A stretch of DNA of 35,954 bases from a virus (taxonomy: Duplodnaviria > Caudoviricetes): IMG/VR virus record IMGVR_UViG_3300037991_002725, positions 1-35,954 of that record. The stretch is one strand, 5' to 3'. The notes under the pieces are model-generated. The model was given only the letters and a program-made list of their open reading frames with translations, did not search any database and was not told the DNA's origin. Below, piece after piece: positions 1,230 through 21,033 of this stretch; within the stretch, counting starts at the first letter, position 1; every line of letters begins with the position of its first letter. The translations under genes and the position numbers were made by a program.

Positions 1230-3317
1230 TCATACACTTCCTATCAATTCTTTCAAAGCCATATATTCGTTATAAACAAGTTGTAATTCATCGGAGTCAT
1301 CTTTATCCGCTTTACTGGCTCTTTCTTTCTTCTGTTTATCAGTGGCTCTAACTCTCGATTCACTGAATCTTCCACGCTTGAACTCTCTACTCGATATTCC
1401 GTCTAACTTAGTATCAATGACCATTTTCTTAGGAGCGTTTGACGTGTATTTGATTATTGGAACATATTTGTTTGTAGTCATTCTAAATTCAGCAGACTCT
1501 CCTGTTTTTTCATCTTTGTATGTCTGCCAATTACCTTTTCCTTTTAGAGCATCTAATACATCTTTCTGTAACTCTTCTAAGGTTAAGTCTACTCTTTTTC
1601 CTTCTTGTAAAAAGAACTGACCAACGTTAAGTCCTTCTGTTATCTTACTATTACCTAATTGTTTTCTTAATGTAGATAGTAGTTCCATGAATTTCTCATG
1701 GTTATCATATACTGGCTCATAATCAACTTTCTTTCCATCTCGTTCAACCTGTATTTTTCCTTCTCTTACAACCTCTTGTTCTGTAAATCCTCTTTCATCT
1801 AAAACACGGTTTCCTTCTGCATCTATGACAGGTTTTGTTTCTTGTTGTATTGGAGTATCAACATTATACTTGTCATCTTTTACGCTTGTAATCAAATCTT
1901 GAAGCCAACTTACCATTTCTTTTCTTTGTTTAGACATTAAATGTGAGAAAAATCTATCAAAAGGAACATCAGTTTTATACTCATTCCAACTACCTTCAAT
2001 AGCATCTATCTGATTATCAATCTTCATAAGATGTTCAGCAAGTTTTCTTGCGTCTTTGATGACTTTCTTATCTTGTTCACTACCTGCTCCTTTAGTTAAC
2101 CAAAGAATAAAGTCCTCTTCATCTTTCCATTCTTTTCTCTTTAGAGTTATAGTAGCAGTTCCTATGGATATCTTATTTTCTCTTGGAGTAATGAAAGAAA
2201 GGATGGTGTCTTTCAATACTGATTTTCTCTGTGAGCGAAGAATATCAAGTAATGACTTCTTATCAGGTATTTTTACATCTTGAATAGCATTCCAAACATC
2301 TTCCATGTTTTCATCTCTGCTATTAGAATTGAAAGATTTCTTCTCCCCAAATACAAACAATTCATATTTACCACCGTCTAAAATCACAAGAGATACTAGT
2401 TGGTCAACGGGTTGTCCATAGTTTTCTGCTTTGGTTAGCATTTTTTGTTCAATACCTTCCTCAGTTTCCATATCTGAACCAAAGTCTTCTAATGCCTGTT
2501 CCTCTGCTTCTCTATCTAATTTAGAATCTTCATCCTCTTCTTCCTTTTCATCTTCTGATGTTGCTTTGGATGCTCCACCTACATTAAACTGAAATGAACC
2601 TGTTCCTATTGTTCCATACCCTTCTTTCTTGAAAATCTCTTTGAAGTATCCTTCTGTATCAATAGTTATTATTCCACCTGAAATAGTAATGTGCTTCATT
2701 AATATTGATGGATAGAGTGCGGGTTCACTTCTATCAAAAGCCCCTAACAATCTACTGCTTCTTGCATCGTATTTTTTCTCTCTTCTTTTCTCAGCAGACT
2801 TCTTATCTTTTACACTATCATCAACATCAGTGTCATCTAATCCTTTACCGTATCTCTTACCTAGTAACTTACTAACTTTCAAATCATTCCTCAAATCTAA
2901 AAGTCTAATATTTTCTTTTGCCATCTCATTAAGGAAATTTTGAGAAAAAGCACGATTCTTACCTGATTTAGTAACGTAATTCATATTCTCAAGCATATCA
3001 ACTAATTCATCTAATTGTGCTTTCTCTATTTTACTAAAATACGAATCAAGATACTTTTCATATTCCGCTTCATCAAATTCTAAATCCGTTCCTCGATAGT
3101 CAGAATTGTCCAAAGAAACTAATTTTCTCGTTAATCTACGAACTCCTTTCATTGGAGTTGTGTTAGACACACCATTGAAGATAAAAGCAGTGAGAGTTCT
3201 GAATAACTCATCATCAGTAAACAAGTCATCAACGGTTTGTCTTTTCTTTTCAGGTTTAAGAATAAATCCTACTTTTAACCCGTCAACAACTTTACTTGTT
3301 ACTTTTATCTCTGCCAT
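1230..3317 (-). CDS. Large charged hypothetical protein (695 aa)
   Basis: Long ORF in the morphogenesis operon, K/E/D-rich, no recognisable catalytic motif. Confidence 0.85.
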   Translation of the reverse strand: MAEIKVTSKVVDGLKVGFILKPEKKRQTVDDLFTDDELFRTLTAFIFNGVSNTTPMKGVRRLTRKLVSLDNSDYRGTDLEFDEAEYEKYLDSYFSKIEKAQLDELVDMLENMNYVTKSGKNRAFSQNFLNEMAKENIRLLDLRNDLKVSKLLGKRYGKGLDDTDVDDSVKDKKSAEKRREKKYDARSSRLLGAFDRSEPALYPSILMKHITISGGIITIDTEGYFKEIFKKEGYGTIGTGSFQFNVGGASKATSEDEKEEEDEDSKLDREAEEQALEDFGSDMETEEGIEQKMLTKAENYGQPVDQLVSLVILDGGKYELFVFGEKKSFNSNSRDENMEDVWNAIQDVKIPDKKSLLDILRSQRKSVLKDTILSFITPRENKISIGTATITLKRKEWKDEEDFILWLTKGAGSEQDKKVIKDARKLAEHLMKIDNQIDAIEGSWNEYKTDVPFDRFFSHLMSKQRKEMVSWLQDLITSVKDDKYNVDTPIQQETKPVIDAEGNRVLDERGFTEQEVVREGKIQVERDGKKVDYEPVYDNHEKFMELLSTLRKQLGNSKITEGLNVGQFFLQEGKRVDLTLEELQKDVLDALKGKGNWQTYKDEKTGESAEFRMTTNKYVPIIKYTSNAPKKMVIDTKLDGISSREFKRGRFSESRVRATDKQKKERASKADKDDSDELQLVYNEYMALKELIGSV

Positions 3318-3332
3318 CCATCAGACCCCATC

Positions 3333-4031
3333 CTATGCTAACCACTTAGCCCATGCAACTGCTTTACCTAGTCCTGATGCTAAACCTAGTCCACTCTGCG
3401 GTGGGGTGTATGTTGGTTGGCCTGTTGCGGGGTCAATCCAATATGGATTGTTCATACTGTCATATCCCGAAGGAGGAACAGGATATCCTGATTGGTTATT
3501 GAAAGCCATTTGTTGTTGCATTAGAGTATTATTCATACCTACTGCCATATTTCCACCTTGTATCTGTGAAGGGTCTAGTCCCTGTGGATTCATACCCATT
3601 GGAGTTGTTGTGGGTTGTGGTTGAGAAGGAGAAGAGAATCCTTGTGCCTCAAGATATTGTTGTTTAGCCATTCTTCTCTGCATAACAACTTCACTGTTGA
3701 TAGCAGTAGCCAAAAGATTAGCCAAATCTAAATCAATGTTTTCTTGAGTTATTGATGTAAACTCATTGAGTGCTTCGGGAGCGATTGTTAGATTACCGCT
3801 TGAACTCTGATTGAACTCTAACTTAGTTAACATCTGACTTACAGAGCGTGTTACTACATCTTCAATTAACTTCTCCAAAGCACCCAAAAATGCTTCTCCA
3901 TGATACTGAAAGAAATCCTCTACATGATTCTCTTGTAGTGTTAGTAAGTTGTTCATTGCTTTGAAATTACTTTGTTGTTGACCCTGTATTTGGGTTGACA
4001 ACGAACTGTTGCTTGTTCCGAATAGTCCCAT
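3333..4031 (-). CDS. Gln/Pro-rich protein with helical core and C-terminal amphipathic helix
   Basis: Starts MGLFGTS, helical middle, Q/P/M-rich low-complexity tail, ends GLGLASGLGKAVAWAKWLA. TAATG overlap with the upstream gene. Confidence 0.85.
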   Translation of the reverse strand: MGLFGTSNSSLSTQIQGQQQSNFKAMNNLLTLQENHVEDFFQYHGEAFLGALEKLIEDVVTRSVSQMLTKLEFNQSSSGNLTIAPEALNEFTSITQENIDLDLANLLATAINSEVVMQRRMAKQQYLEAQGFSSPSQPQPTTTPMGMNPQGLDPSQIQGGNMAVGMNNTLMQQQMAFNNQSGYPVPPSGYDSMNNPYWIDPATGQPTYTPPQSGLGLASGLGKAVAWAKWLA

Positions 4032-4705
4032 TATTCTACATCCTCCTCGTCTTGTGCTGATGATACCCTAGTGCCTTCGGCTAATAGTGTTTTCATCCTA
4101 CTATTGATTCCATTGGTTTCTATGATTAATCTGAACAACTCTTCTTCTTTAGTTTCTACTAAAGCAACAGGGGGTTTGATAGTCCAACCCAATGATGTTA
4201 GAGAAGTAATGTCTTCTTGTTTTAGACCAGTCATAGGGCCACTTGCTAAAGGATTCAAACTTCTTGCAGATGGGATGTAAGCACTAAAAGAAAGACCATG
4301 TTCTTCTGCAAGCATTTGTTGTTCTAACATCTCATATTGTCTGTGTATCTGAGCGTGTTTCTCACAGTATGTTCCTCTCATTGGATATCCTTTACGCACT
4401 TTATGTAAAGGAAGAGGTGGCCTCATTGAATCCCCTGCTTCCCAATTCTTTTGTGTTCCACATACTACACATCTATCTTTTATGTTGTATTTGAAACCGT
4501 ATCTTATTCCTAACAGTTTTTTCTTTTCAGGCATAAGCACTTTGATAATTTCTTTCAATTGTTTTTTCGGCTTGACGCTTTTATACTCATAAAGCATGAC
4601 TGAACCTGCTGCTCTTGCAGCAGAAAGTCTGTCAAGAAATGGGTTCATTCCTGTATTTGCTGACTGTGCGCCAATTAAACTGGGTGGCTGAAATTGCATA
4701 GACAT
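4031..4705 (-). CDS. Zinc-finger protein, ArfGAP-like motif
   Basis: CVVCG..W..(x31 spacer)..CEKHAQIHR versus ArfGAP C-x2-C-x16-C-x2-C-x4-R (CxxCSGIHR). Directly downstream of the GTPase. The CDS is solid; the GAP call is tentative. Confidence 0.55.
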   Translation of the reverse strand: MSMQFQPPSLIGAQSANTGMNPFLDRLSAARAAGSVMLYEYKSVKPKKQLKEIIKVLMPEKKKLLGIRYGFKYNIKDRCVVCGTQKNWEAGDSMRPPLPLHKVRKGYPMRGTYCEKHAQIHRQYEMLEQQMLAEEHGLSFSAYIPSARSLNPLASGPMTGLKQEDITSLTSLGWTIKPPVALVETKEEELFRLIIETNGINSRMKTLLAEGTRVSSAQDEEDVE

Positions 4706-4717
4706 ATCATCTCTCCC

Positions 4718-5389
4718 TCAGTAGTCCTTTATGATTGTTAGGATTCCTCTATATACCATTTCTGAATCAGATTTAGCACTTACAATGTATTTGTGACAGG
4801 GTATTCCTTTATCATTTAACTTCTGCATACCGGGTTTGAATGACTCAAATATAGGGTGCTTATCCATATCTCCATTGTAGTCATATTTGTCTTTCCATAA
4901 GTCATATTTGTTAGCCCAAATAGATACTGCTATTGGATAATCATGGGGCTTCTTTTTCTTTTTTTTACCGTTCAAGTTCCAATGAGATGAACAAATAGTA
5001 TCAACTAAAAATGTCCAACATAGTTGTTGTTCTATATCGTAGTGCTTATCCATATGTCTATCATCTATCATGAAAATAATATATTTCACATGACGACCAC
5101 GCATATCTTCTAGCCATTCATTCCAGTAAACAGTTTCTCCACCAACATCAGCAGTTTTTACAGTATGAGCATCACCGTCAAGTTTCACATATTTTCTTGT
5201 GGCTCGATGTAAACCAACTGTTCTATCTGTAATAGAAGGGACTTCTCCTCTTGTTCTCAACTGATGGTGTAATGTTGTTTTACCTACCTTGCTTGCACCA
5301 TACACACCAAACGGTATAGAGTGAAGACGTTGATACATCTTGTTCATAGCCTCAACTATGAGTATTGCAAAGCCCGTCATCACGGACAT
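4718..5389 (-). CDS. Small Ras-superfamily GTPase, Arf/Sar-like
   Basis: G1 GASKVGKT, G2 RTVG, G3 DVGG, G4 NKYD, G5 SAK; hydrophobic/amphipathic N-terminal extension; polybasic insert GKKKKKK. Confidence 0.92.
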   Translation of the reverse strand: MSVMTGFAILIVEAMNKMYQRLHSIPFGVYGASKVGKTTLHHQLRTRGEVPSITDRTVGLHRATRKYVKLDGDAHTVKTADVGGETVYWNEWLEDMRGRHVKYIIFMIDDRHMDKHYDIEQQLCWTFLVDTICSSHWNLNGKKKKKKPHDYPIAVSIWANKYDLWKDKYDYNGDMDKHPIFESFKPGMQKLNDKGIPCHKYIVSAKSDSEMVYRGILTIIKDY

Positions 5390-5395
5390 TAGGCT

Positions 5396-5623
5396 CTACC
5401 CCCATAGATGATTCCAAAAAGAGACAAACCCATCCCAAAAGATAGAGTATAGATTAACACCGAACAACGGCAAAGCATGACCTATTAGAAAAGTTCCTAC
5501 TGAAACTGCTGCACCCCAAATGTAGAACCTTGCTCTTAGAAACCAAATATCAGCAGAATGCGCTCTTTGTAGGTCATATGCTAATGTGGATTCATCGAAT
5601 CCCATTAGGATTTCTCCGACCAT
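5396..5623 (-). CDS. Small membrane protein (75 aa)
   Basis: Hydrophobic FYIWGAAVSVGTFLIGHALPLFGV followed by an aromatic amphipathic tail; SD GAGGG upstream. Confidence 0.8.
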   Translation of the reverse strand: MVGEILMGFDESTLAYDLQRAHSADIWFLRARFYIWGAAVSVGTFLIGHALPLFGVNLYSIFWDGFVSFWNHLWG

Positions 5624-5632
5624 ATTCTACCC

Positions 5633-6046
5633 TCACTCTTGAAATTGTGTTAAGAAAGTAGGGCTTAGAGTGTTGTCGCTTACTGGTTGAACTACAACAT
5701 TTTGTTGCATTTGTTGTTGATTCTGATAGTATGCCTGTTGGAACTGAACTAAGGATTCTCTTACCCTCTTTCTGTTTTCTTCGTCATTTGCCTTTCTATT
5801 CCAATAAGCATCTATTCTTCGTTTTAGTAAGAACTCTTCAATGAAATCGTTGGCAATCAAATCTAATATTACTTTCAATATCATTATCCCACCAACAGTG
5901 CTAACTCCAAATAACACTGCATGGGCTACTCCGCTATATGGGAAGGAAGTTCCCACTAAGGCGTATACGTAAATGTTCAATCCACTTACTGCTCCAACAA
6001 AGAGCATGGTCATTATTAGTCTTGTATCTGTATCTATAACTGGCAA
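5633..6046 (-). CDS. Two-TM membrane protein with coiled-coil/Gln-rich tail
   Basis: Two hydrophobic segments (LIMTMLFVGAVSGLNIYVYALV; VAHAVLFGVSTVGGIMILKVIL). Probable TTG start at 6046 behind GGAG, just after the upstream stop. Confidence 0.8.
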   Translation of the reverse strand: MPVIDTDTRLIMTMLFVGAVSGLNIYVYALVGTSFPYSGVAHAVLFGVSTVGGIMILKVILDLIANDFIEEFLLKRRIDAYWNRKANDEENRKRVRESLVQFQQAYYQNQQQMQQNVVVQPVSDNTLSPTFLTQFQE

Positions 6047-6050
6047 GCAA

Positions 6051-6335
6051 TCAACTCCATGTGCAAGAGTATGCTCCCCCTGAACCACTCAATATAGCCG
6101 TAATACCTGTTCCCATTGCTCTCCCATGCATATCGAACTCAGTTGTTGTATTAGCGGTTAGAATTAGACGTGCGACCTCATCAGCAGAACCAACACTTGT
6201 GCTATCGTGGTCGTATATTTTTAGAGTTGCAGTTCCAGTAGAAGTAAAATGAACACTGTTCAACTTACAGTTACCTACATTCAATACTGCACTAGCGGTT
6301 CTGACTGGACTACCCGCTACTCCACCTACCATCAT
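6051..6335 (-). CDS. Small beta-rich virion-type protein
   Basis: 94 aa, G/T/S-rich with alternating beta pattern; second gene after MCP; ATGA overlap. Confidence 0.7.
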   Translation of the reverse strand: MMVGGVAGSPVRTASAVLNVGNCKLNSVHFTSTGTATLKIYDHDSTSVGSADEVARLILTANTTTEFDMHGRAMGTGITAILSGSGGAYSCTWS

Positions 6336-6766
6336 TCCACTTCCTTCTTAGTGGTTGTTTTCTTAGCAGGTTCTTTTTTGGTTGTTGTTTTCTTAGGAGC
6401 AGGTGTTTTCTTTTCCGGTGTAACAGTCTCAACAACTGTTTCAGTGACAGTCTCAACAACCTCCTCAACTTTCTTCTTAACAGTGGTCTTTGCTTTCTTA
6501 GGATATAGAACGTTCAAAACATCTGCACCCTCATCTAAGCCCAAATGTTCTCTAATCGAAACCAATCTATTTTCAGGCATACTCTTGATATCTTTCTTAT
6601 CGCTATCAATAAACTCTACAATCATTTGCTCGTCACCTAAGTAAAGTGCAGCAATTCTTGCAGGTATCTCAACGGGTATTTCGTTGATAGAATATACCGT
6701 TTCACCTGCACCTTGTATTACTATGTCGCCTCTTGTTCTGTGTTCTTTCAATCTAATATAAGCCAT
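6332..6766 (-). CDS. Hypothetical protein with K/T/P-rich tail
   Basis: First gene after MCP, SD GAGG, C-terminal repeats PKKTTTKKEPAKKTTTKKE. Confidence 0.85.
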   Translation of the reverse strand: MAYIRLKEHRTRGDIVIQGAGETVYSINEIPVEIPARIAALYLGDEQMIVEFIDSDKKDIKSMPENRLVSIREHLGLDEGADVLNVLYPKKAKTTVKKKVEEVVETVTETVVETVTPEKKTPAPKKTTTKKEPAKKTTTKKEVE

Positions 6767-19112: not shown

Positions 19113-20546
19113 CTAAAAGTTCAGCCCCATCATTCCGCCTAAAGACCTGTTCATTGGCTTAGGTTCATCAAATATTCCCATATCATCCAACAACATGAAC
19201 ACATCTGATGTCTTTGTAGCACAAGCCACTGCTAATGCTAAACTCATAACTAAGTCGTCATGCGCCCCTACACCCTCAAACTTTCCGGCAGTGGTAATAG
19301 AGAACATAGACAGTTCTTCTATCAACGCATTGGTCAGTCTTCTACTCGCATTATCACCATATGGAAAATTTATTTTTCCGTTTTCTATATTCATTTGAAG
19401 ACTCAGAATTATTTCCTGTTTCTTTTTTCTTGTAGTTGTAAAATCTCTAACATTCAAGTCAGATATGTTTCGTAGTTCCTGTGTAAATGCCTTTGCGAAA
19501 GTGTTGGTTTCATAGAGAACTTCTTCGGGTTCAAAGATTTTACCAATCAATCTAATCTTCTCTATGTTCTCTCTGAAATCTACATTCTTAGCCCTGTCCA
19601 CATGGACTATGGTTTTGTTTTTATTTTCATCAACTTCCAAAACCGTGATTACGTTGTAGTCTCCATCTGTTGAGATAGCAGGGTCAACTCCCACATAATA
19701 CTTGTAGCCCTTTTCCTTACGGTGTCCAAGTTTCAGAACGTAATCTTTGTTCTTACATTTCTCTATGAACTCAGGATTGAATAGAGCAGTTCCAGTAGAT
19801 ATAGGAACACAAAGATATTCTCTTGTAAACTTGAGAGAACCTATCTCTGCTTTTCTTTTCATTAGTGCGTCATAGTCCCAACGCTCAGGCCAAAGTGGTT
19901 CATTCAAAGAGTTTAGACATGGGTACTTCTGAACAGAATATGCTTCATTCTCCTCTAACTGAGCAAAAATATCCGTGTAGGTAAACGGAGTTCCAATCAT
20001 TCTCAACTTAGATGTATGATGAAGTGTTGGTATCATATCCCCGAAGAACCAATCTGTAACTCGTTGAATACCTGCAAGGCTAAACTCCTTCAAAGGGTCG
20101 TCAATGATAATCTCCTGTGGGTGAAGTCCTCTGATTTGAGAACCAACGGAACGCTCCAAGATAGCGTTACCGTTTGTTAACTGAATATTACCAATAGCCC
20201 AACCCCTACTGGGTTTGTATTTCTTAAGAGCAGGGTGGTTGAAGTATCTGTCAATTTCTCTCATGTGAACAAGAGTCTGCTTTTGGTTAGAAGAAATGTA
20301 AAGCATTTGATATGGTGGTTCTTGAAACACAAGATTCCATACTACCCAACTGTGCATAAAAACAGATTTTCCGTGGTCACGACTACAAACAATAACGGTT
20401 CTATCTGTTTTTTCCATTGAGTCTAACCATTCTTGCATATACGGAGGAAACATCATTCCAAGAACATTCTGAAAAAAATATGGAAATGAAGTTTTAGATA
20501 GTTCCATATCCATTGCTGAAACAAAATCTAAATCATCTAATTCCAT
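19113..20546 (-). CDS. terL: Terminase large subunit
   Basis: Walker A SRDHGKS, Walker B IIIDD, motif C GTP, nuclease GVDPA and HDDLVMSLALA. Confidence 0.95.
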   Translation of the reverse strand: MELDDLDFVSAMDMELSKTSFPYFFQNVLGMMFPPYMQEWLDSMEKTDRTVIVCSRDHGKSVFMHSWVVWNLVFQEPPYQMLYISSNQKQTLVHMREIDRYFNHPALKKYKPSRGWAIGNIQLTNGNAILERSVGSQIRGLHPQEIIIDDPLKEFSLAGIQRVTDWFFGDMIPTLHHTSKLRMIGTPFTYTDIFAQLEENEAYSVQKYPCLNSLNEPLWPERWDYDALMKRKAEIGSLKFTREYLCVPISTGTALFNPEFIEKCKNKDYVLKLGHRKEKGYKYYVGVDPAISTDGDYNVITVLEVDENKNKTIVHVDRAKNVDFRENIEKIRLIGKIFEPEEVLYETNTFAKAFTQELRNISDLNVRDFTTTRKKKQEIILSLQMNIENGKINFPYGDNASRRLTNALIEELSMFSITTAGKFEGVGAHDDLVMSLALAVACATKTSDVFMLLDDMGIFDEPKPMNRSLGGMMGLNF

Positions 20547-21033
20547 TTTTCACCACGTCAAACCAAACATCTCGATGAACTCCCCAAACCCATTTCTGAA
20601 CTTGGTCTGCGAACTCTAATCCCCGAATAGCATTTCTTGAGTCATCGGGTAACTCTTCTTCATTCATATCTTTGAACCCATATCTTCTGTATGTGTTAGC
20701 AATTCTTGGATTAGCAATATTAGCAAAAAGAGTTTGGCCTCCTTTCTCCTCTATGAGTTTTTGAACTAGTAATTGTGCTAACCCTCTACCTCTAAATCCT
20801 CTTCTAACGTGAATACCTGCTCCCAAAAGAACTCCTTTGTATGGAGCAAAACCAATAACTCCTACTGGTTTATCTTCTAAAAAACCCACAAACATTCTTG
20901 CAGGTGCAGTAGCCCAAGATGAATTAGGGGATATCCTTTGATAACGCTCTCTTCTTTTTTTGTATTCATAGTACCCATCTTCTAAGAATACTCTAACGGC
21001 ATCATCTTCAGACATCTCTTGAAACTCTAACAT
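20533..21033 (-). CDS. GNAT-family acetyltransferase
   Basis: Motif A IHVRRGFRGRGLA, motif B N..IANTYRRYGF; ends VWFDVVK. Confidence 0.85.
   Translation of the reverse strand: MLEFQEMSEDDAVRVFLEDGYYEYKKRRERYQRISPNSSWATAPARMFVGFLEDKPVGVIGFAPYKGVLLGAGIHVRRGFRGRGLAQLLVQKLIEEKGGQTLFANIANPRIANTYRRYGFKDMNEEELPDDSRNAIRGLEFADQVQKWVWGVHRDVWFDVVKNGIR

Follow-up and report, generated by a model that had tools for sequence, protein, structure and literature searches.

Five adjacent genes in a 35,954-nucleotide (nt) stretch of virus DNA, IMG/VR record IMGVR_UViG_3300037991_002725 (the whole stretch is called the window here), form a virus-borne module that includes a small GTPase. The module is real, unusually well conserved, and without a described counterpart. 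A first-pass annotation of the DNA had presented it as an Arf-like GTPase with a GTPase-activating protein (GAP)-like zinc finger, two membrane proteins, and an amphipathic Gln/Pro protein; the "GAP-like" label and the "Arf" label in its strict sense both fail. The gene set, its order, the G motifs, their conservation, the late-operon position in tailed viruses, and the transfer of the block between unlike elements were observed directly. All five open reading frames (ORFs) were confirmed on the minus strand at the coordinates first annotated:

5633..6046, minus strand: 137-amino-acid (aa) protein with two predicted membrane helices, candidate membrane anchor (hydropathy, alignment)
5396..5623, minus strand: 75-aa protein with one predicted membrane helix, candidate GTPase receptor (hydropathy, alignment)
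4718..5389, minus strand: 223-aa Ras-superfamily small GTPase (G1-G5 motifs, AlphaFold2 model)
4031..4705, minus strand: 224-aa soluble Cys/His protein, candidate effector or non-catalytic regulator (alignments)
3333..4031, minus strand: 232-aa Gln/Pro/Asn-rich protein, candidate coat or effector (alignments)

The gaps within the block are 9, 6, 12, and -1 nt, the last being the overlap of the 232-aa gene with the stop of the Cys/His gene, and a purine-rich, Shine-Dalgarno-like stretch lies ahead of each of the five starts. The 137-aa gene begins with TTG at 6046, as it does in three of the four closest loci checked.

Co-conservation of the five genes had been set beforehand as the test on which the proposed module could fail, and it held by a wide margin. 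The GTPase was found on at least 551 IMG/VR contigs. Within the window's lineage (lineage 1), 182 loci were fetched and presence was counted only where the flank sufficed. The 137-aa gene was present in 176/176 loci, the 75-aa gene in 177/177, the Cys/His gene in 165/166, and the Gln/Pro gene in 159/159; in L118, the only locus without the Cys/His gene, the GTPase is followed by two other ORFs and the contig end. All five genes occurred together in 162 loci, always in a single order and within 3 kb in 161 of them. The GTPase gene is sometimes flanked by inserted genes on one side or the other. Among the loci listed, no insertion separates the two membrane genes from each other or the Cys/His gene from the Gln/Pro gene, and the latter two overlap or sit at most 3 nt apart in 74/74 loci. 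The counts of distinct sequences given below were made after a filter removed ORFs mis-picked beside inserted genes (1, 9, 0, 10, and 10 removals over the five genes in lineage 1; 0, 4, 0, 0, and 0 in lineage 2).

A sample independent of the GTPase was drawn from 80 contigs found by their terminase, of which the 24 longest-looking were chosen and 23 examined. The GTPase was present in 20 of the 23, including all 13 that were at least 90% complete, with one copy each. Judging from coordinates, the three contigs that lack the GTPase leave too little room for the block between the terminase and the contig end. The GTPase is thus a single-copy core gene of magrovirus-type genomes. Its median identity was 81%, compared to 76% for the capsid protein, in the first 80 loci, which were chosen by GTPase similarity. 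A scan of GTDB gave 47 candidate stretches, and only two contigs (L081 and L082) carried the whole block with a capsid gene upstream. Both come from a Maricaulis bin and are likely mis-binned virus contigs. Since the GTDB patterns reach lineage 1 only, a distant host homologue is possible.

A profile search over 1.84 billion representatives returned 83 matches, and the block recurs in three further lineages. Lineage 2 (145 contigs, 80 fetched) is about 30% identical and has the same five-gene order in 9/9 fully read loci, plus a small hydrophobic sixth gene. In the complete 107-kb lineage-2 genome G001, the block heads an operon running to the terminase, portal, ligase, and capsid genes, a position which indicates that the block moved as a unit. 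Lineage 3 comprises four loci (two distinct sets), with the block behind a thermosome gene. Lineage 4 comprises 11 metagenome loci; all five genes were seen in six, and the other loci are cut by contig ends. One acidic gene is inserted before the GTPase in lineage 4 (L365:9229-9999, 256 aa, after the small membrane gene), and the lineage also carries a TFIIB-like gene and glycosyltransferases. The five-gene order is therefore kept in four lineages despite differing flanking genes. Profile-profile comparison supports homology of the GTPase and of its Cys/His and Gln/Pro partners when the window's lineage is set against lineages 2 and 3 (88-100%). The small hydrophobic gene follows the Gln/Pro gene in lineages 2 (L183:7735-7992) and 4 (L358:3871-4200) and may be part of the module there.

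The longest lineage-3 record, G003 (110 kb, 79% complete), encodes PolB, the largest RNA polymerase subunit, a resolvase, a thermosome, and a 238-aa HerA/FtsK-type ATPase. The window's terminase, portal, and capsid and Pfam Terminase_6C, each of which had a match in G001, had none in G003, and no jelly-roll, HK97, or other capsid gene was identified there. This fits the magrovirus "group D" type, for which no morphogenetic block was identified according to the available part of Philosof et al. (PMC5434244). The small ATPase could possibly be the packaging ATPase of tail-less viruses. G003 and lineage 4 have the resolvase and one more gene in common. The records of G003, a large archaeal element, are L266 and L270-L275, with L356-L366 as related lineage-4 loci. 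One of them encodes a 2955-aa protein with guanylate kinase, NUDIX, glutaredoxin, HD, DUF7831, and DUF5824 domains (L271:10304-19171, minus strand), and a SWIB/MDM2-domain gene lies on another lineage-3 element (L263:13386-13682).

Within the block, conservation is highest for the GTPase, and the complete set of G motifs first annotated is present and conserved (G1 GASKVGKTT, G2 RT(V)G, G3 DVGG, G4 NKYD, and G5 SAK). An AlphaFold2 model without nucleotide predicts a Ras-like G domain and an N-terminal helix (residues 2-22); the single G domain, the G1-G5 motifs, and this modeled fold place the protein in the Ras superfamily. The predicted N-terminal helix is hydrophobic at first and then amphipathic. 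Its best 11-residue moment had a median of 0.65 with a median shuffle p of 0.02 (n=131), and 0.59 with p 0.05 in lineage 2 (n=69), so that an N-terminal amphipathic helix, the defining feature of the Arf family (bioRxiv 10.1101/2024.02.28.582541), is predicted here. A lysine-rich hairpin is inserted at approximately 136-148. Switch I contains Arg56-Thr57, and an Arg directly precedes the switch-I Thr in 201 of 202 sequences from lineages 1-3. The residue after G3 is Glu in the window; lineage 1 has Glu in 90 and Gln in 41 (n=131), and lineage 2 has Gln in 43, Glu in 20, Asp in five, and His in one (n=69). It is His in both lineage-3 sequences and Gln in 9/9 from lineage 4. The corresponding residue after DxxG is His in Sar1 and SRbeta.

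The "Arf-like" label was therefore upheld in part. It is supported by Arf-type traits and by the best matches, and some database entries of relatives are named "GTPase SAR1 family protein". However, the window's GTPase missed the cut-off of Pfam PF00025 (Arf) with 16.0 compared to 22.3 bits, the catalytic Gln is mostly Glu, and Foldseek favored Rabs. RecA entries that topped one match listing were concatenated P-loop-only matches and were disregarded. Among 20 distant relatives, seven passed the Pfam Arf cut-off (P0272, P0288, P0299, P0308, P0309, P0314, and P0316). All seven lack the switch-I Arg, lie on contigs shorter than 2.4 kb, and may connect cellular Arf-related GTPases with the viral family. 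No viral contig matched P0249.

Both membrane proteins retained the architecture first annotated. The 137-aa protein has predicted membrane helices at approximately 13-31 and 45-63 (hydropathy peaks 1.72 and 1.89), followed by a long, charged C-terminal helix, and 116/122 homologues show two hydrophobic segments by hydropathy. It matched no Pfam or PHROG family. It is a candidate membrane anchor, holin-like in shape only. The 75-aa protein has one hydrophobic segment in 117/119 homologues by the same measure, a soluble N-terminal part of 33 residues that is nearly invariant in the alignment, and a C-terminal amphipathic helix (moment 0.57), and may be the receptor of the GTPase. Profile-profile comparison supports homology of the two membrane proteins in lineages 2 and 4 (98% and 91%). 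Scores from the window's proteins were weak, and equivalence of its membrane genes to those of the other lineages therefore rests on position, size, and hydropathy.

The Cys/His protein is soluble, with C79, C82, C114, and H117 as the residues of interest. The proposed zinc finger remains putative, since the CxxC...CxxH pattern holds in 122/123 sequences of the window's lineage and is broken in lineages 2 and 4: Asp replaces the second Cys in 67/67 lineage-2 sequences, and the distal Cys/His pair is absent in 8/8 from lineage 4. An ArfGAP has the pattern C-x2-C-x16-17-C-x2-C with an invariant Arg finger behind it. The likeness to the ArfGAP finger CxxCSGIHR is local only (CEKHAQIHR in the window's protein), and an Arg at the ArfGAP-like position occurs in 65/123 sequences of lineage 1, 0/67 of lineage 2, and 0/2 of lineage 3. 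ArfGAP identity was rejected because the spacing is 31, the fourth ligand is His, the Arg is not kept, and ligands are lost in lineage 4, and the "GAP-like" claim was withdrawn with it. No ArfGap Pfam match was found in 31/31 Cys/His homologues at E up to 10. The protein itself had no Pfam, PDB-sequence, or clear fold match and no Atlas match of at least 0.9. Its profile found nothing significant in PDB, and the mostly helical model is of low confidence (predicted local distance difference test score 55) and without a fold match. It is homologous across lineages (hhalign 96-97%) and may be an effector or a GTPase regulator without a catalytic residue.

The Gln/Pro/Asn-rich protein has a conserved N-terminal domain and a hydrophobic, basic Gly/Ala/Trp C-terminal tail; a Gly/Ala-rich hydrophobic stretch ends the protein in the lineages shown. 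The annotated terminal amphipathic helix was not borne out in the window, where the moment is low (0.18-0.26), and the tail is clearly amphipathic in lineage 2 only (moment 0.51, p 0.03). The protein aligned to lineages 2 and 3 at hhalign 88-95%, and its profile had no PDB-sequence match below E 0.26. Neither the Gln/Pro nor the Cys/His protein had a Pfam match at E up to 1, and hence neither matches an ArvB or ArvC family. A eukaryote-type myristoylation signal at the MGLFG start was discarded, as it is not retained across lineages.

The record is a 36-kb linear virus that is 37% complete; near-complete relatives are 86-103 kb. The window also holds the following features:

minus strand: terminase, HNH nuclease, portal, ATP-dependent ligase, prohead protease, and SU10-type capsid (Pfam/PHROG matches)

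The capsid protein shares 22-24% identity with its counterparts in the haloviruses HCTV-1, HCTV-5, and HVTV-1. In this halovirus-like head module, genes for an ATP-dependent ligase and a nuclease lie among the structural genes, as described for magroviruses (PMC5434244), and from this arrangement we infer both the clade and the host, a magrovirus of Poseidoniales. The next gene had been annotated as the head-tail adaptor. The block is directly adjoined by a variable 695-aa ORF instead (1230-3317, minus strand), which was matched in 37/80 loci at a median identity of 29%, and the sole match of the 360-aa "adaptor" behind it is a PHROG of unknown function. An OapC reading of the 695-aa gene was rejected (Pfam E 0.031 on an acidic stretch). 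Directly upstream of the block, a 94-aa gene (6051-6335, minus strand) is present in 175/175 lineage-1 loci and had no match in lineages 2 and 3; it is probably capsid-linked and outside the module. A holin reading of the 144-aa gene at 6332-6766 was also rejected, given a weak PHROG score (E 0.0085) and no passing stretch. A GNAT acetyltransferase gene (20533-21033, minus strand) lies directly before the terminase.

Expression of the block was approached in two ways. A promoter and terminator scan with bacterial-type patterns only gave counts not above shuffles, and all six terminator-like sites were on the plus strand. Contigs from three of four RNA libraries cover parts of the block (e.g. 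5561-5831 and 3939-4321), which gives weak support for its expression; most of the GTPase gene and the ligase were uncovered, and these contigs are uninformative there.

The proposal of a self-contained GTPase module agrees with these findings: the genes are co-conserved, the GTPase is a true small GTPase, membrane anchors are predicted, and the block lies inside a late operon. For its function, we tentatively favor a late, membrane-tethered switch that bends or opens the host membrane for exit, a reading which we place a little short of an even chance. The two membrane proteins would mark the membrane site and make their conserved cytoplasmic helices available to the GTPase. On GTP binding, the N-terminal helix and the basic hairpin would be released and the GTPase would hold on to the membrane with them. 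The Cys/His and Gln/Pro proteins, whose genes are coupled, would act as the effector, oligomerizing at the membrane through a lipid-binding tail. Hydrolysis might use the GTPase's own switch-I arginine, as in MglA. Because the GTPase would supply this arginine, a partner would only need to position it and no arginine finger would be required. Slow hydrolysis, with Glu in place of the usual Gln, could serve as a timer. A more specific version, in which a GTP-timed, Arf/Sar1-type membrane-remodeling machine with its own anchors and coat is common to tailed magroviruses and the apparently tail-less group D, is doubtful in our estimate.

Several results weigh against the exit switch. Switch I of lineage 4 is Ser-Thr rather than Arg-Thr in 9/9 readable sequences, and the catalytic model is not universal, since lineage 4 combines Ser-Thr with a retained Gln. 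Foldseek ranked Rabs first, with only Rab and Ras proteins among the matches listed. Comparison of the membrane proteins of the window's lineage with the others gave weak hhalign scores (E 0.001-0.12), and a pooled profile failed to recover the 137-aa gene. The median moment of the Gln/Pro tail in the window's lineage was not above shuffles (p 0.445). The late timing is read from gene position only and applies to lineages 1 and 2, and the exit function itself is a proposal. Finally, HCTV-1 and HVTV-1 had no match to either GTPase query, so that tailed archaeal viruses can manage without the module.

The other explanations were ranked behind the exit switch in the order given here. The module could organize an intracellular membrane site (a pole, an invagination, or a compartment) for replication or assembly, similar to MglA polarity. 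The MglA-like intrinsic Arg-Thr would suit this, magroviruses bring their own replisome and chaperonin according to the available part of PMC5434244, lineage 3 also has an RNA polymerase subunit and a thermosome, and the module is common to elements with unlike structural genes. We nevertheless regard such an organizer as unlikely, since no Roadblock/MglB family match was found among the neighbors and the block of the tailed viruses lies in the late operon, away from the replication genes. Marginally less likely is a change of the host surface, be it a block to superinfection, jammed vesicle traffic or division, or the packing of element DNA in vesicles. The gene, single-copy in 13/13 near-complete tailed genomes, is better conserved than would be anticipated for an accessory gene of host interaction, and apasvirids are predicted to be lytic (PMC12999244), even though the lineage-4 block adjoins glycosyltransferase genes, ArvA provides a precedent for GTPase-made vesicles, and group-D-like elements, in which no terminase, portal, or capsid was matched, might need no tailed particle to spread.

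The location of the window's-lineage block behind the capsid and two small genes is the usual place for head completion, and the membrane segments would suit an ejected channel. The products could accordingly be virion or ejection proteins that form an entry channel through the host membrane, with the GTPase as its gate. This is improbable, however, because the block is shifted to the operon head in lineage 2, no PHROG virion family matches, and the block is present in G003, where 110 kb (79% complete) gave no match to a terminase, portal, or capsid. That the block occurs in this incomplete record, in which no head-tail genes were found, speaks against its being a structural component of the tailed virion and in favor of a role in the host that these elements share. 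The least probable explanation is that there is no single machine, the membrane proteins being a holin pair and the other three genes being kept by operon inertia. Some loci do have insertions next to the GTPase, separating it from the 75-aa gene or from the Cys/His gene, and the 137-aa protein fits a loose holin description, but the five-gene order outlasts changing flanks in four lineages and no holin family matched.

The exit of tailed archaeal viruses is described as completely uncharacterized in the available part of PMC10791045, and the module offers five concrete proteins with which to probe it. Should the more specific version with its own anchors and coat hold, these genes would explain how one of the most abundant virus groups of the ocean leaves its host, by a new egress mode, and would add a coat-like system beyond those of eukaryotes and Asgard archaea. 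The occurrence of a small GTPase that has Arf-type traits in viruses of a non-Asgard archaeal group bears on the origin of membrane-acting GTPase switches, and the module connects tailed magroviruses with the unexplained elements of group D. The first-pass annotation knew of no description of such a module in tailed archaeal viruses, and none was found in print. No paper pairing magroviruses with a GTPase was found, although Zhou et al. 2023 (Environ Microbiol 25:367) may annotate the gene. "GTP" occurs 0 times in the available main texts of PMC11706807, PMC5434244, PMC10160649, PMC5332604, and PMC10768690, and a GTPase is unmentioned in PMC12999244. The supplements of PMC11706807 and PMC5434244 yielded no GTPase in the parts available, and those of PMC11706807 were covered in part, with annotation tables perhaps outside.

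Compared to known systems, the block has several partial counterparts. The holins of phage lysis cassettes are small membrane proteins that are encoded in a late operon and end in a charged tail (PMC10791045, available part), and the 137-aa protein resembles a holin in the loose sense of having one or more predicted membrane helices and a charged, hydrophilic C-terminal end. None of the five genes matched a holin or endolysin family in Pfam or PHROGs, and the block, unlike these cassettes, includes a GTPase and two soluble partners. No lysis cassette was recognized in the window by Pfam or PHROGs, as first annotated, and this applies to a record that is only 37% complete. The Rab/Ras-like GTPases of giant viruses (mimivirus Rab, PDB 5XC5) are 12-22% identical and belong to other hosts and another virus group, and the block's GTPase differs from mimivirus Rab by its predicted N-terminal helix and its five-gene module.

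The ArvA-ArvB-ArvC (OapABC) system of Haloferax volcanii has a small GTPase with a predicted N-terminal amphipathic helix and a Cys-rich proposed regulator, and acts on an archaeal membrane (PMC10927574, available part). The viral operon likewise contains a small GTPase with a predicted amphipathic helix and a Cys-containing protein. ArvABC, in contrast, is cellular and has three genes, none of which is reported as a membrane protein in the available text of PMC10927574. An operon of this kind would place ArvB (DUF2073) immediately after the GTPase gene and ArvC (DUF2072) no more than two genes away. The two downstream viral proteins matched 0 Pfam families at E up to 1, neither ArvB nor ArvC included, and no ArvB/ArvC family was among the matches of the 31 Cys/His homologues at E up to 10. 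In MglA of Thermus and Myxococcus, an Arg directly before the switch-I Thr permits catalysis without a GAP arginine finger (PMC3199381, available part). The viral GTPase has an Arg at the same place, for which a catalytic role is suggested by analogy. Gln82 is required in MglA (PMC3199381), whereas the viral residue is mostly Glu. No Roadblock/MglB Pfam match was found among the block's neighbors, and MglA was not among the 50 VIA matches listed.

Archaeal ArfR proteins are reported only from Asgard archaea and Korarchaeia, with a catalytic Gln (Q72/Q69), and the word "virus" has 0 occurrences in the available text of that preprint (bioRxiv 10.1101/2024.02.28.582541). The viral GTPase is approximately 20% identical or less to Arf6, Arl8, Arl3, Sar1, SRbeta, and GerdArfR1 (PDB 8OUN). 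Glu follows G3 in 90/131 lineage-1 sequences, so that the catalytic Gln of Arf proteins is mostly lacking. In comparison with the Arf family, the predicted N-terminal helix is longer and more hydrophobic, a basic hairpin is inserted, switch I carries Arg-Thr, and the GTPase is encoded by a virus together with four dedicated partners.

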